A DNA stretch of 12,896 nt, taken from the UHGV virus genome UHGV-0181219; one strand, written 5' to 3'. Source of the DNA: a virus. The notes under the pieces are model-generated. The model was given only the letters and a program-made list of their open reading frames with translations. It searched no databases and was not told the origin of the DNA. Every line of letters starts with the position of its first letter. Position 1 is the stretch's first letter. The position numbers and the translations under genes were made by a program. Positions 2,465 to 7,245 of the stretch are shown piece after piece.

Positions 2465-3352
2465 TCACTCCTGCGCCCATGAAGGCATTTCAGTTTGTCC
2501 GTAATCTTTGGTGGCAAAGTTTTCAGCCTTAAGTCCATTAGCAACCTTGCGTACCGGTCTGGATAACGCCTGCTTGTTCTGGTAGCTGAGTTTCTGGCTG
2601 GCAGTGATAAACCAGTTCTTTGGCTTCTCATGGCTAAATTCGATATCCAGCCTTTCCAGTTCGTAATTCAGGTCAATGTTCGGATACAGGCGCTTCCATG
2701 CTTCGTAGTCCTTGTGGTTTAACCGAACGATATTTCCTTCGAATGCATAGCGACTTGAAATTTTATGGACATCAGCCCCACCCCCTTCACAAGTCGCGTC
2801 AGCGGCTTGGGTGTTAGAAAGGGAATCAGGAATCAGGTTAAGGGAATCAGGAATCAGGTTAAGGGAATCAGCAGGATTTAAACTGTTCTCTACTGGTTCT
2901 TGCACTGTACTTGCATGGTGCTTTTCTGGTTCTTCATTGTTTTCAATGATTTGTAGTGATTCGGCATTCTCCTTCTCTTCCTCTTTATCGTCCTTGCACT
3001 GTACTTGCATGGTGCTGTTATTGTTCTCTACTGGTTCTGGTATCTCACTGGCTGCTTCTTTGCAGTGAGGGTTCTGGTGCTTTTTCCAGTTATTGATTTG
3101 GATATATGAGCCGCCATTTACCTGATATCGGTTGATGAATTTGTGACTGTGAAGCTGCTGAAGCAGATCATTGCAGTCCACATCATCGAAAGGCAGTACC
3201 ATTGCTTTAATTTTCTTTGGGCGATCATCCAACCGCCCTTCTTTGTCAGCAATAGTCCATAACCCGGCAAAAAGGAGACGGGCATATGGAGAACACTCAG
3301 CTAATTCATCATTGGTGAAAAAGCCTGGTTTGATATTTCTTGAACGTGCCAT
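2465..3352 (-). CDS. Replication initiator / replisome organiser (O-like), with a C-terminal region resembling a DnaT-like domain
   Basis: Start set at the ATG at 3350-3352 (MARSRNIKPGFFTNDELAECSPYARLLFAGLW...), preceded by AAGGTGG. The acidic repeat-containing linker (DSLNLIPDSLNLIPDSL) is encoded by the iterons. The C-terminus (...ELERLDIEFSHEKPKNW...ASQKLSYQNK) loosely resembles the DnaT C-terminus from memory. Confidence 0.75.
   Translation of the reverse strand: MARSRNIKPGFFTNDELAECSPYARLLFAGLWTIADKEGRLDDRPKKIKAMVLPFDDVDCNDLLQQLHSHKFINRYQVNGGSYIQINNWKKHQNPHCKEAASEIPEPVENNNSTMQVQCKDDKEEEKENAESLQIIENNEEPEKHHASTVQEPVENSLNPADSLNLIPDSLNLIPDSLSNTQAADATCEGGGADVHKISSRYAFEGNIVRLNHKDYEAWKRLYPNIDLNYELERLDIEFSHEKPKNWFITASQKLSYQNKQALSRPVRKVANGLKAENFATKDYGQTEMPSWAQE
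2821..3037. repeat. Iteron-type direct repeats inside the O-like gene; putative phage replication origin
   Basis: GGGAATCAGGAATCAGGTTAA occurs in tandem at 2821-2841 and 2842-2862, with a partial third copy from 2863. CTTGCACTGTACTTGCATGGTGCT occurs at 2899-2922 and 2993-3016. TGTTCTCTACTGGTTC occurs at 2884-2899 and 3022-3037. Confidence 0.6.
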
Positions 3353-3363
3353 TTTGTCCACCT

Positions 3364-4164
3364 TTAGTACGGGAGTTCTTCCTGAGCTTCACGAATGCGT
3401 TCAGATACCCACTCCTTGAACGTTGTCCAGTTAGGTACTGTTTTCGCAAACTCAGTAAGTTCATCGAGATCTAAGTCGTATGAAAGCCATGCCTTGAGAT
3501 AACTCATTACATGGTTTTGATTGATATATATGCGGTTTTTAAGGATTCCTCTGATGTATAGAATCCTTTGTTCTTTTGGCGGTTTTCTTTTTGTCGCTGC
3601 TATGCGAGGGATGTACTCAAAGAATTCACCAGTAAGCTCATGGGTTATTTCTTGGGTGAGTTTTTTGTCTGCAGCAATCTCAATCGCATCGAGTATTTCT
3701 TCAAGCTTATATATTCGAAGCCATCTCTTGATAGATTTTCGCCCATTGTCATTAACAGTAAATGGCGCAATGCAGTCGTCAATTTTGGTAGCGACAATAT
3801 CAACAACATCGTCTTTCAGGCTCTTAAGACCATCTCGCCACTTGATCATCATCTCCAGTTGCTCTCGCTTGGTATTAAGTTCCTGGAGTTGCTGCCTTTG
3901 CTTTTCCATTATTGAATTATCGCTGAGCAGTTTGTCTCTTTTCCCGCCATTACAACTATCGCAAGAAGTAATAAGGTTCATCATGTCGTTATCGCCACCC
4001 TTGCTAACTGGGTTGATATGGTCGACATGAAGGATGACGTCTGGCGCAGAACTCCCACAGTACTGGCATTTGAAGCCATCGCGCTTGAAAACCTCAAACC
4101 GTATTTTCTTGGTAATGCCGGAACGAATCTTTTTTACCTGGTCTGGTGTAGGTTTTTTTGCCAT
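3364..4164 (-). CDS. HNH endonuclease-domain protein with a C-terminal domain of unknown function
   Basis: Start set at the ATG at 4162-4164 (MAKKPTP...), which has GGAG 6 nt upstream. N-terminus has HNH signatures (CQYCGSS...HVDHINPVSKGG...NLITSCDSCN), then a coiled-coil-like stretch and about 150 aa that I do not recognise. Confidence 0.75.
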   Translation of the reverse strand: MAKKPTPDQVKKIRSGITKKIRFEVFKRDGFKCQYCGSSAPDVILHVDHINPVSKGGDNDMMNLITSCDSCNGGKRDKLLSDNSIMEKQRQQLQELNTKREQLEMMIKWRDGLKSLKDDVVDIVATKIDDCIAPFTVNDNGRKSIKRWLRIYKLEEILDAIEIAADKKLTQEITHELTGEFFEYIPRIAATKRKPPKEQRILYIRGILKNRIYINQNHVMSYLKAWLSYDLDLDELTEFAKTVPNWTTFKEWVSERIREAQEELPY

Positions 4165-4185
4165 AATTAACTCCATAGAAAGCAG

Positions 4186-4485
4186 TTAAAAATCCATCTG
4201 GATTTGTTCAGAACGCTCGGTCTTGCACACCGGGCGTTTTTTATTGGTGATTTCATCAAGCGCATACTTAAAAGCCCTGCTAATCGGACTGATGTCTGAT
4301 GCCATTCCGAAAGCACACAAGACCGAAGCAATAAATCTCCAGTCCGTTCTGCTTATCTTCGATTCATGACAGCCAATCATCTTTGCCAGACCGCGCTGTG
4401 TAAGCGTTGACAGGTTGATGAGTAAATCAGTTTCAGCGCGATCAATTTCTCGCTGTGTTGGCTTGCTGTAACTTGCTTGTGTCAT
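4186..4485 (-). CDS. cII: cII-type transcriptional activator
   Basis: C-terminus ...EITNKKRPVCKTERSEQIQMDF closely matches lambda CII (...ILTNKKRPAATERSEQIQMEF). An HTH region (TQRGLAKMIGCHESKISR) precedes it, and the position after cro and nutR fits. Confidence 0.85.
   Translation of the reverse strand: MTQASYSKPTQREIDRAETDLLINLSTLTQRGLAKMIGCHESKISRTDWRFIASVLCAFGMASDISPISRAFKYALDEITNKKRPVCKTERSEQIQMDF
4214..4242 (+). terminator. Plus-strand rho-independent terminator antisense to the 3' end of cII (OOP-like)
   Basis: 8-bp stem CGCTCGGT/ACCGGGCG (4214-4221 and 4229-4236, one G-U pair), 7-nt loop, then TTTTTT at 4237-4242. It sits inside the cII coding region on the opposite strand. Confidence 0.5.
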
Positions 4486-4622: not shown

Positions 4623-4850
4623 TTATGCAGCCAGAAGGTTCTTTTTGCTTATTTCAAGCATTTCGCTTGCTTGATATTTGCCACCAGAAATCTCTTCGAT
4701 TTTTGATGCGTATTTCGTTTTCCCAAAAAACTCAGTCTTAGGGAGGAAGCCGTTTTTGAGCCACTTATAGACAGCCCTTTCGCTAACTCCACAAGCCTTC
4801 GCAACTTCAGGGATGCCGACACCTTTAATCGGCTCATCAAGATTTTGCAT
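4623..4850 (-). CDS. cro: Cro-like HTH repressor
   Basis: Divergent from cI across an operator-rich spacer. The product has an HTH (GIPEVAKACGVSERAVYKWLKNG). Start set at the internal ATG (MQNLDEP...) so that a 78-bp divergent promoter region remains; the longer start at 4883 is possible. Confidence 0.6.
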   Translation of the reverse strand: MQNLDEPIKGVGIPEVAKACGVSERAVYKWLKNGFLPKTEFFGKTKYASKIEEISGGKYQASEMLEISKKNLLAA

Positions 4851-4928: not shown

Positions 4929-5636
4929 ATGGTTCAGAATGAAAAAGTGCGCAAAGAATTCGCCCAGCGGCTAGCGCAAGCCTGTAAAGAAGCTGGTCTT
5001 GATGAACATGGTAGGGGAATGGCTATAGCCCGTGCCCTTTCTCTTTCGTCCAAAGGCGTTAGCAAATGGTTTAATGCTGAGTCTTTACCGCGTCAGGAAA
5101 AAATGAATGCGCTTGCGAAATTTCTAAACGTTGATGTTGTTTGGCTTCAGCACGGCACTTCGTTAAATGGAGCGAATGATGAAGATACTCTTTCATTTGT
5201 TGGCAAATTAAAAAAAGGGTTAGTGCGCGTGGTTGGTGAGGCAATTCTTGGTGTTGATGGTGCCATCGAGATGACCGAAGAGCGCGATGGGTGGCTCAAG
5301 ATTTATAGCGATGATCCAGATGCCTTTGGTCTTCGTGTGAAAGGAGACAGCATGTGGCCCAGAATAAAATCAGGAGAATATGTACTCATTGAGCCTAACA
5401 CCAAAGTATTCCCGGGTGATGAGGTGTTTGTCAGAACCGTTGAAGGACACAACATGATTAAGGTTCTTGGCTATGACAGAGATGGAGAATACCAATTTAC
5501 AAGCATTAACCAGGACCACAGGCCTATAACGTTGCCTTATCATCAAGTAGCAAAGGTGGAGTATGTGGCTGGTATTCTGAAGCAATCTCGCCATCTGGAT
5601 GACATCGAGGCAAGGGAGTGGCTGAAAAATTCGTGA
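4929..5636 (+). CDS. cI: cI-type prophage repressor (HTH plus LexA-like S24 autopeptidase)
   Basis: N-terminal HTH region and a C-terminal S24 signature (GDSMWPRIKSGEYVLIEP ... MIKVL). No SD precedes the ATG, consistent with a leaderless PRM transcript as in lambda cI. Confidence 0.85.
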   Translation: MVQNEKVRKEFAQRLAQACKEAGLDEHGRGMAIARALSLSSKGVSKWFNAESLPRQEKMNALAKFLNVDVVWLQHGTSLNGANDEDTLSFVGKLKKGLVRVVGEAILGVDGAIEMTEERDGWLKIYSDDPDAFGLRVKGDSMWPRIKSGEYVLIEPNTKVFPGDEVFVRTVEGHNMIKVLGYDRDGEYQFTSINQDHRPITLPYHQVAKVEYVAGILKQSRHLDDIEAREWLKNS

Positions 5637-5836: not shown

Positions 5837-6316
5837 ATGGATAAAATTAATTACCCACCCCTGTTTGAGCCAGGGTTCCATGACATGGATGAAGCTGGAT
5901 TAAAATCGTATTGTGTCGATTGCTTTCCTTCATCATCCAGGCGAGGCATGCTATACTGTAATTTTATACAGCTACTCGAATCTATTCGAGAATTATCTGC
6001 TCAATATGGCTGTTTTACAGAAATATGGGTTGATGGTTCATACACCACGTCTAAACCAGAGCCTGATGATATTGATATTTTGTTGGTATGTGACTATAGC
6101 AATATAAACTCAATACCTGTCATGCTTCGGGGCCGCGTCGATAATTTGCTTGACCGAAACTACATCAAACAAAACTACAAAATTGATGTCCTACTACTCA
6201 TGAAGAATTTAGATGACCCTAACTATGATTATGAGTACTGGCGTAGCTACTGGCGCGGTTGGTTTGGTTTTGATCGCAGTGAAAACCCGAAAGGGTTAGT
6301 GAGGATTTTTTTATGA
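5837..6316 (+). CDS. Minimal nucleotidyltransferase (pol-beta-fold, MNT/SMODS-like), first gene of the candidate defence cassette
   Basis: 159-aa product with the pol-beta NTase signature: helix RELSAQYG, then G67-S68, D78-I-D80 (DIDILLV) and D117 (KIDVLLL). Its stop overlaps the next start (ATGA at 6313-6316). Confidence 0.7.
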   Translation: MDKINYPPLFEPGFHDMDEAGLKSYCVDCFPSSSRRGMLYCNFIQLLESIRELSAQYGCFTEIWVDGSYTTSKPEPDDIDILLVCDYSNINSIPVMLRGRVDNLLDRNYIKQNYKIDVLLLMKNLDDPNYDYEYWRSYWRGWFGFDRSENPKGLVRIFL

Positions 6317-7245
6317 ATGATAAATCAATGTTTAAAAATTGCGATAAACGCATTGATTTCATTCAAAAAGAAGTCGATGCAATGAAGCAAAACAAAACCA
6401 GGTCCTTTGCTGACATGCTTCTTTATCGCTCCATGGATTCTCATCTGAGCGATTTGAAGGCCGAAAAATTAAAGCAAGATAGTCGGCACCCACTTATCGA
6501 TTTTTTTGAGCTGCGGCTGAAAGGCTCTGAGGTTGACTTTGGCTCTATTCCTTTAGAGCTGCTTGGGGCTATTTCAACAAATCTTGCAGCGCTAATACAA
6601 AGAGCAACACACAAAATTGCCTCAGGCAAGGACTCAAAAAAAGTTCCCTACGACGTGAAAAGCTCCTTAAACCTCAGGCTGGCTGATTTATCCCCTGGGT
6701 CTACAAAATTGGGCGTCACCTTCTCTACAGGAATAGCAGAATTAGTAGAAACAGTACCCAGCAAGGCTGTAAAAGGCATATTCGATTTGTTGTTAAGCGA
6801 TGACGACAACAACTTCATGAATCACGTCGCTGAAATTGGATACAATTCCACTGTAAGCCTTAAGAGAATCGTAGAGGAATGCGATAAACACAACTTAACA
6901 TTTGATGCAAGTTGGACCGGTCCATTTAGTAATGGCACCAAGGTGGCAACTATTGACTCCAATAAAATTAAGTACTTGGTGAGTAGACTTACATCAACCA
7001 TTTCATCCCCTCCCATTACTGAAACGGTTACAGGCGAACTGGTCGTTCTATCCAAATATGGGAAGCTGGAGCTTGATGTTGGTGGTGAACATTTAAAGGC
7101 TTCCTATCCGATTGAAATGCTAGATTTAATACAAAAAAAACACAAGGTCGGACAGATTGTTTCTCTTTTAGTGGAGACTACTGAGATTCACAATGATCGC
7201 ATAGGTCTGTACCGTAAAAACCATCTTGTTAAATCGGTTCTTTAA
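6313..7245 (+). CDS. Hypothetical 310-aa protein, partner of the nucleotidyltransferase
   Basis: GAGGA RBS 7 nt upstream, translationally coupled to the NTase gene. I recognise no family; no convincing transmembrane segment. An R39-x4-H44 motif near the N-terminus is noted without weight. Confidence 0.7.
   Translation: MNDKSMFKNCDKRIDFIQKEVDAMKQNKTRSFADMLLYRSMDSHLSDLKAEKLKQDSRHPLIDFFELRLKGSEVDFGSIPLELLGAISTNLAALIQRATHKIASGKDSKKVPYDVKSSLNLRLADLSPGSTKLGVTFSTGIAELVETVPSKAVKGIFDLLLSDDDNNFMNHVAEIGYNSTVSLKRIVEECDKHNLTFDASWTGPFSNGTKVATIDSNKIKYLVSRLTSTISSPPITETVTGELVVLSKYGKLELDVGGEHLKASYPIEMLDLIQKKHKVGQIVSLLVETTEIHNDRIGLYRKNHLVKSVL

Follow-up and report, generated by a model that had tools for sequence, protein, structure and literature searches.

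A probable short-form allele of the lambdoid pO-oop-tO cassette opposite the 3' end of a prophage cII gene

What does a strong transcription terminator do on the strand opposite the 3' end of a phage cII gene? We pose this question for the virus genome UHGV-0181219, analyzed here as a single stretch of 12,896 nt ("the window"), in which an intrinsic terminator on the plus strand lies inside the last 19 codons of a minus-strand cII. The reading that we favor, with a probability of roughly 0.78, is that the element represents the lambdoid pO-oop-tO cassette in the form carried by this prophage, and that its predicted product is an RNA of ~69 nt antisense to cII. The element is ordinary, a short-form allele of a long-known lambda-type element, and is not surprising as such; what is new here, as read from the sequence, is the location of the putative promoter, the size estimate of ~69 nt and the short form of the allele.

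In the window, the immunity and replication region is of lambdoid type and runs in reverse, with the following genes around the element:

4929-5636 (+): cI repressor, LexA-like (Peptidase_S24 plus HTH)
4623-4850 (-): Cro-like HTH protein
4186-4485 (-): cII gene, 99 aa, of the phage 21 / HK022 / 933W type (Pfam Phage_CII, PF05269, E = 4.6e-35); antisense target of the predicted RNA
3364-4164 (-): HNH endonuclease gene, 266 aa (Pfam HNH, E = 2.3e-13; phrog_16986)
2465-3361 (-): replication-initiation protein

The CII protein shares 82-95% identity with its counterparts in phage 21, HK022, 933W and relatives. The HNH gene is the first gene to the right of cII and occupies the slot taken by O or a small ORF in other lambdoid phages; beyond it come the replication initiator and a DnaC-like ATPase. 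On the plus strand, its Shine-Dalgarno sequence, GGAG, appears as CTCC at 4171-4174 and its ATG as CAT at 4162-4164. E. coli PD7 has 100% identity to the window over 4060-4262, and PGAP gives it the same set of genes and places the HNH start identically; 2013C-3250 and 2010C-3053 are further E. coli genomes with exactly this context. The HNH-type context is rare: a count over complete E. coli genomes gave 18 of 5426, to which the Stx1 phage Stx1_121427 can be added, and the HNH module occurs joined to both lambda-type and 21-type cII. Any single complete E. coli genome covers at most 52% of the window, which is consistent with a mosaic prophage.

Some further features of the window lie outside the element. 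The replication-initiator gene (2465-3361) holds a perfect 21-bp tandem repeat in 2.5 copies (AAGGGAATCAGGAATCAGGTT; 2819-2871), probably iterons of the phage origin, and the terminator scan picked up in the same gene a 20-nt hairpin-forming sequence, GCACTGTACTTGCATGGTGC, that occurs twice (2902-2921 and 2996-3015, +) at a distance of 94 nt. Downstream of cI lie a DUF6932 ORF (5837-6316) and an uncharacterized ORF of 310 aa (6313-7245). The 5' part of the former carries a perfect LexA-box-like palindrome, CTGTAATTTTATACAG (5956-5971, +), which overlaps the window's best sigma-70 PWM match, TTCATC-17-TGnTATACT, with its -10 at ~5952-5957; one possibility is that SOS controls an internal promoter here, within an accessory or defence-like island.

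The terminator hairpin and its kinship with lambda tO

The hairpin that raises the question has the following coordinates:

4210-4242 (+): intrinsic terminator, tO homolog; stem 4210-4221 / 4229-4240, loop 4222-4228, T6 run 4237-4242

On the plus strand, positions 4210-4240 read AGAACGCTCGGT-CTTGCAC-ACCGGGCGTTTT, and the T6 run at 4237-4242 is followed by A4243; the transcript would thus end in a stem of 11-12 bp and then U6. With 12 pairs, six of them G-C, the hairpin ranks first among the 27 terminator-like sites of the window, compared to 11.5 +/- 3.2 such sites in shuffles. Folded alone, it reaches -16.0 kcal/mol (z = -4.55), and equally stable structures arose in 0 of 200 shuffles. The first-pass annotation had placed a strong plus-strand terminator at 4214-4242 inside the minus-strand cII, and this claim is borne out by the top rank, the z-score and the Pfam identification of CII; its interval corresponds to the G+C-rich stem core and T-run of the hairpin at 4210-4242.

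A bidirectional terminator that would also act on pR transcripts was considered and ruled out, as the minus strand lacks a U-run after the hairpin. The cII sense strand reads UCUGAACAAAUCC at this place, not a U-run, so the hairpin should not stop pR transcription.

A scan of 4100-4300 against Rfam 15 (E <= 1) returned no family match, with no OOP model among the results; such an outcome does not weaken the case for an OOP-family element. In direct alignments, positions 4193-4250 of the window align with lambda 38592-38646, the 3' part of OOP, and the difference is confined to the hairpin loop, which reads TCTTGCACA in the window versus TTGCCG in lambda and equals one extra CII codon. Positions 4192-4243 match the annotated oopRNA of phage 21 (AJ237660) at 51 of 52 bases. 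The phage 434 record has oop RNA annotated over the same conserved block, and a survey of 5426 complete E. coli genomes found the conserved tO block in 1336. Over its whole length, the RNA predicted below matches phage 21 oopRNA at 61 of 69 positions and lambda OOP at 58 of 66 aligned bases, with identity to lambda over the 29 nt before the loop and over the 21 nt that span the 3' arm and the U-run. By these alignments, the window hairpin is lambda tO by direct homology and not merely OOP-like. The locus had earlier been likened to the lambda OOP arrangement; the near-complete match to phage 21 oopRNA and the loop-only difference from lambda strengthen that likeness from analogy to homology.

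One could still ask whether the hairpin simply follows from what the CII C-terminus must encode, or works within the sense cII mRNA, and has no role as a plus-strand terminator. Such an account draws on the C-terminal motif KKRP..TERSEQIQM, which is common to lambda-type and 21-type proteins. We compared nine terminator variants (lambda, 21, HK97, 933W, Shigella 75/02, Klebsiella phiKp_30 and three metagenomic alleles), in which 100% of cells were paired and three pairs showed compensatory double changes; controls in which the 3' arm was slid by 1-3 columns gave 0 compensatory pairs. The hairpin of Hafnia phage Meifeng was mis-registered by MAFFT, and this phage was excluded from the formal pair count and inspected by eye. 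In HK97, 933W, Shigella 75/02 and Hafnia Meifeng the amino acids differ, but compensatory substitutions preserve the stem, and it is always the antisense strand that has the U-run. After the hairpin, the sense strand of the window has UCUGAACAAAUCC. Both observations speak against a coding by-product, which we regard as highly improbable.

Synonymous diversity in cII points the same way as the covariation. Among 48 distinct 21-type cII alleles, third-codon-position diversity is 0.004 in the hairpin codons versus 0.076 in non-overlapping cII. This result is supportive, not decisive. Other 19-codon stretches of cII are equally invariant in these alleles, and the 5' half of the cII-RNA overlap is highly variable at synonymous sites, so that only the hairpin shows clear nucleotide-level constraint. 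From the compensatory changes, we take the terminator hairpin to be under selection.

The putative promoter and the predicted antisense RNA

Where would an RNA that ends at this terminator begin? The first-pass annotation could identify no convincing promoter, a view that we revise: a candidate, TGGTCT-17-TGcCATAAT, lies at 4139-4167 and aligns with the -10 of lambda pO and with the layout of P22. Together with the terminator, the features of the proposed transcription unit are:

4139-4144 (+): -35-like hexamer TGGTCT, 17 bp upstream of the -10, matching the P22-pbi annotation
4159-4167 (+): extended -10, TGcCATAAT, in which CAT (4162-4164) is the complement of the HNH ATG
~4175-4243 (+): predicted OOP-like antisense RNA, ~69 nt, from alignments to lambda, phage 21, Min27 and epsilon34
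4190-4205 (+): small 6-bp 5' hairpin, AAAUCC-AUCU-GGAUUU, from the fold

For lambda, PMC5869508 gives 38675 as the OOP 5' end, with the -10 at a distance of 8-13 nt to its right. The lambda sequence has TGtCATAAT as its -10 (38683-38691), with CAT as the complement of the O start codon and TTGAGT 17 bp before. The P22-pbi record has an annotated oop promoter, TGGTCA-17-TGgCATAAT, plus a terminator antisense to c1. The window core, TTTGCCATAATTAACTCC, and lambda TTTGTCATAATGACTCC are alike except for one substitution and, in the discriminator, TA in place of G; on this alignment the window's -10 and discriminator are homologous to those of lambda pO. (In the first MAFFT alignment, the promoter region was put out of register by the 11-nt length difference.) The putative promoter has CATAAT 8-13 nt before the predicted 5' end and over the start codon of the next gene, and we infer that this pO-like promoter drives an oop-like RNA.

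As a sigma-70 promoter the site is uneven. The TGGTCT hexamer is weak against the -35 consensus (3/6), and a consensus promoter scanner made no call at the pO-like site because it demands at least 4/6 matches in the -35. The -10 plus TG score of 4159-4167 is the 30th of 25,720 window positions. By a rough PWM with a TG bonus, whose scores are approximate, the whole window promoter scores 8.4 (48th of 25,720 positions), with 13.1 for lambda pO, 6.9 for the HK97 type and 7.9 for the P22 type. A 45-bp fragment of lambda pO that contained the -10 and -35 was non-functional in plasmids, and 94 bp into O were needed (PMC5869508). This upstream O sequence is absent from the window, which speaks against activity of the pO-like promoter in an HNH-type context.

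The sequence CCTGGT (4137-4142 in the window) precedes CATAAT by exactly 19 nt, both here and in contexts of the HK97 and P22 types. At this distance it is seen in three otherwise unrelated upstream genes (window; L128 (HK97), L215 (P22), class C loci, e.g., L012), which have the N-terminal pattern M[TA]K....[YD]Q[EDV]K in common, and its position is that of the annotated -35 of P22 oop. It appears that the DNA sequence of the pO -35 is conserved even though the coding sequences around it differ.

If lambda's 7-nt gap after the -10 is kept, the RNA would start at A4175, in the spacer at 4165-4185; its 3' end, A4243, is taken from lambda position 38599. An OOP-sized RNA had previously been expected to start at 4150-4170, and the start is now predicted further on, at ~A4175, because this allele is the short form, of ~69 nt rather than 77 nt. 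The cII gene is the target: 58 nt of the predicted RNA (4186-4243) are perfectly complementary to it, and the other 11 nt come from the spacer. The predicted fold has an energy of -21.6 kcal/mol (z = -3.47), and 0 of 200 shuffles were as stable. The small hairpin at 4190-4205 is not conserved in all alleles, being broken where they read CCATTTGTATTTG. The window fold contains only this local 6-bp hairpin and no lambda-type 5' stem-loop (AGAUCCAG...CUGGAUUU), and a search of 4100-4260 for a LexA box (CTGT-N8-ACAG, up to 1 mismatch) found no match; to our knowledge, neither the lambda 5' stem-loop nor a LexA-like box is a defining feature of OOP.

Taken together as a mechanism, RNA polymerase would start at the extended -10 promoter TGGTCT-17-TGcCATAAT, over the ribosome-binding site and start codon of the HNH gene, transcribe leftward in phage terms (the window plus strand) from ~A4175, and stop at the tO hairpin and U-run, at ~4242-4243, to yield the RNA of ~69 nt. 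By analogy with lambda, a promoter active in its HNH context would produce an RNA with about this 5' end, which would pair with the pR-derived cII mRNA; RNase III would then cut the OOP:cII-mRNA duplex and lower CII synthesis, and less CII would push the lysis-lysogeny decision towards lysis. In lambda, the only phage for which this mechanism is known, down-regulation of cII by OOP is RNase III-dependent (Krinke & Wulff, as cited in passages of PMC7067206 and PMC5869508). Relatives of the RNA are known from expression data: RNA-seq revealed the 63-nt oop of P22 (PMC13397905), and OOP-BTP1 owes its annotation to transcriptome data for BTP1, a P22-like prophage (PMC7067206).

The cassette in other phages and gene contexts

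We compared 120 IMG/VR loci with the conserved core and 80 loci encoding a 21-type CII. The gene after cII differs among them, with at least six kinds seen: lambda O, HK97 gp53-like, P22 orf48-like, two Min27-like types and the HNH type. The promoter architecture is conserved across them. The -10 is at the expected place in 69 of 70 distinct contexts, either as CATAAT, always with TG at -15/-14 (49/49), or as the consensus TATAAT without TG (20/20). The 18 E. coli genomes with the HNH-type context are all at least 99% identical, so conservation within this class is uninformative. More distant phages have a comparable arrangement with other sequences: Hafnia phage Meifeng (58% CII identity) has TGaCATAAT and an antisense terminator of unrelated sequence at the same place, and Shigella phage 75/02, with a divergent cII homolog, has a TGn -10 and an antisense terminator of different sequence.

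The sole context of the 70 without the pO -10 (L191, IMGVR_UViG_2778261069_000005) has been rearranged, so that unrelated sequence adjoins GTGGATTGATCC, the 5' end of OOP. As a natural deletion of pO, it could serve for comparison.

Two length classes emerge from the gap that separates the -10 from the conserved CATCTGG. The long class, with a gap of 38 nt, comprises the lambda, HK97 and P22-orf48 types; the short class, with 26-27 nt, comprises the Min27-like types, epsilon34 and the window (27).

These comparisons bear on the possibility that the locus is an inherited tO/oop remnant, kept as a recombination patch at a module boundary and with no functional promoter in the HNH-type context. 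BLAST break-points do cluster at the edges of the block (~4154, 4185-4190, 4228-4230 and 4245-4250), the phage 21 record places its 'border lambda immunity' inside oop, and the same HNH context is joined to two cII types; the weak -35 and the need of lambda pO for extra upstream O sequence would also fit a dead promoter. However, the locus still has the -10, the TG and a TGGTCN -35 at 17-bp spacing, all in agreement with the promoter of P22, for which an RNA has been detected. The -10 is lost in just 1 of 70 contexts. Compensatory changes, moreover, maintain differing hairpins in divergent phages, which a pure recombination patch would not need. We consider a mere remnant quite unlikely.

A different emphasis would make the promoter itself the main player. 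Polymerase at pO would collide with pR transcription and occupy the Shine-Dalgarno sequence and ATG of the HNH gene, with tO merely ending the transcript, and expression of the downstream replication genes would be throttled. In every upstream class the -10 lies over the start codon and the discriminator over the Shine-Dalgarno sequence, as such a role would have it, and lambda pO activity cuts pR read-through and affects replication independently of the oop RNA level (PMC3985674). The lambda evidence, however, comes from O/ori-lambda plasmids, and here the HNH gene comes first and the initiator only after it. Such a role is also compatible with an antisense one, and as the main function of the locus we judge it unlikely.

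More tentatively, and with considerable doubt on our part, pO-oop-tO may be a portable unit that is independent of the replication module. Any gene after cII would be fused to it such that its Shine-Dalgarno sequence and ATG coincide with the pO discriminator and -10, as for the at least six unrelated genes seen here. The unit would come in two RNA length classes, of which the short one may act mainly by occlusion or collision on pR entry into the replication genes. If so, the short class, without the 5' stem and the LexA-like box, would not be under SOS control.

For the cassette allele with an antisense RNA, which we continue to prefer, the practical value lies in annotation. PGAP leaves the element unannotated in the E. 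coli PD7 record, and Rfam gave no OOP match. The comparison offers a rule for finding OOP genes in lambdoid prophages, namely a -10 (CATAAT with TG, or TATAAT) fused to the start codon of the next gene. The element leaves current understanding unchallenged.

Comparison with known OOP systems

Lambda OOP (pO-oop-tO; 77 nt, 38675-38599) shares with the predicted RNA its position antisense to the 3' end of cII, its start in the spacer before the next gene, and a TG-extended CATAAT -10 that overlaps the ATG of this gene. The two differ in the gap between the -10 and the conserved block, which is 38 nt in lambda and 27 in the window; because of these 11 fewer nucleotides, the long 5' stem-loop of lambda (AGAUCCAG...CUGGAUUU) is replaced by the 6-bp hairpin. 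The window loop is 3 nt longer, reflecting the one extra CII codon, and the -35 is TGGTCT in the window versus TTGAGT in lambda. Lambda also has CTGTTGATAGATCCAG, a LexA-box-like sequence with one mismatch, at the OOP 5' end, for which the window has no counterpart; a LexA site in lambda oop-pO is mentioned in PMC5869508. Finally, the next gene is O in lambda and an HNH endonuclease in the window.

Phage 21 oopRNA (AJ237660, annotated as misc_RNA) has the same cII type and the same tO allele, with the loop TCTTGCACA, as the window. It differs in its long lambda-type 5' part and in its lambda-type O gene and promoter.

With P22 oop, the likeness is in the layout: TGGTCA-17-TGgCATAAT corresponds to TGGTCT-17-TGcCATAAT in the window, the -10 overlaps the ATG of a non-O gene after the cII homolog, and the RNA is short. 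In contrast, the P22 terminator and the 3' end of c1 are unrelated in sequence to those of the window, and the P22 5' end (GATTGATCC) belongs to the lambda-like long family.

The predicted counterparts in Stx phages of the Min27 / phi24B type and Salmonella phages of the epsilon34 type share both the gap of 26-27 nt and the tO block with the window, whose predicted RNA matches that of Min27 at 59 of 69 positions and that of epsilon34 at 57 of 64. Min27 differs in having the consensus TATAAT without TG, and the upstream genes are different in both the Min27- and epsilon34-type counterparts. The comparison as a whole suggests that the function of the cassette is tied to cII and to pR transcription rather than specifically to lambda O or ori.
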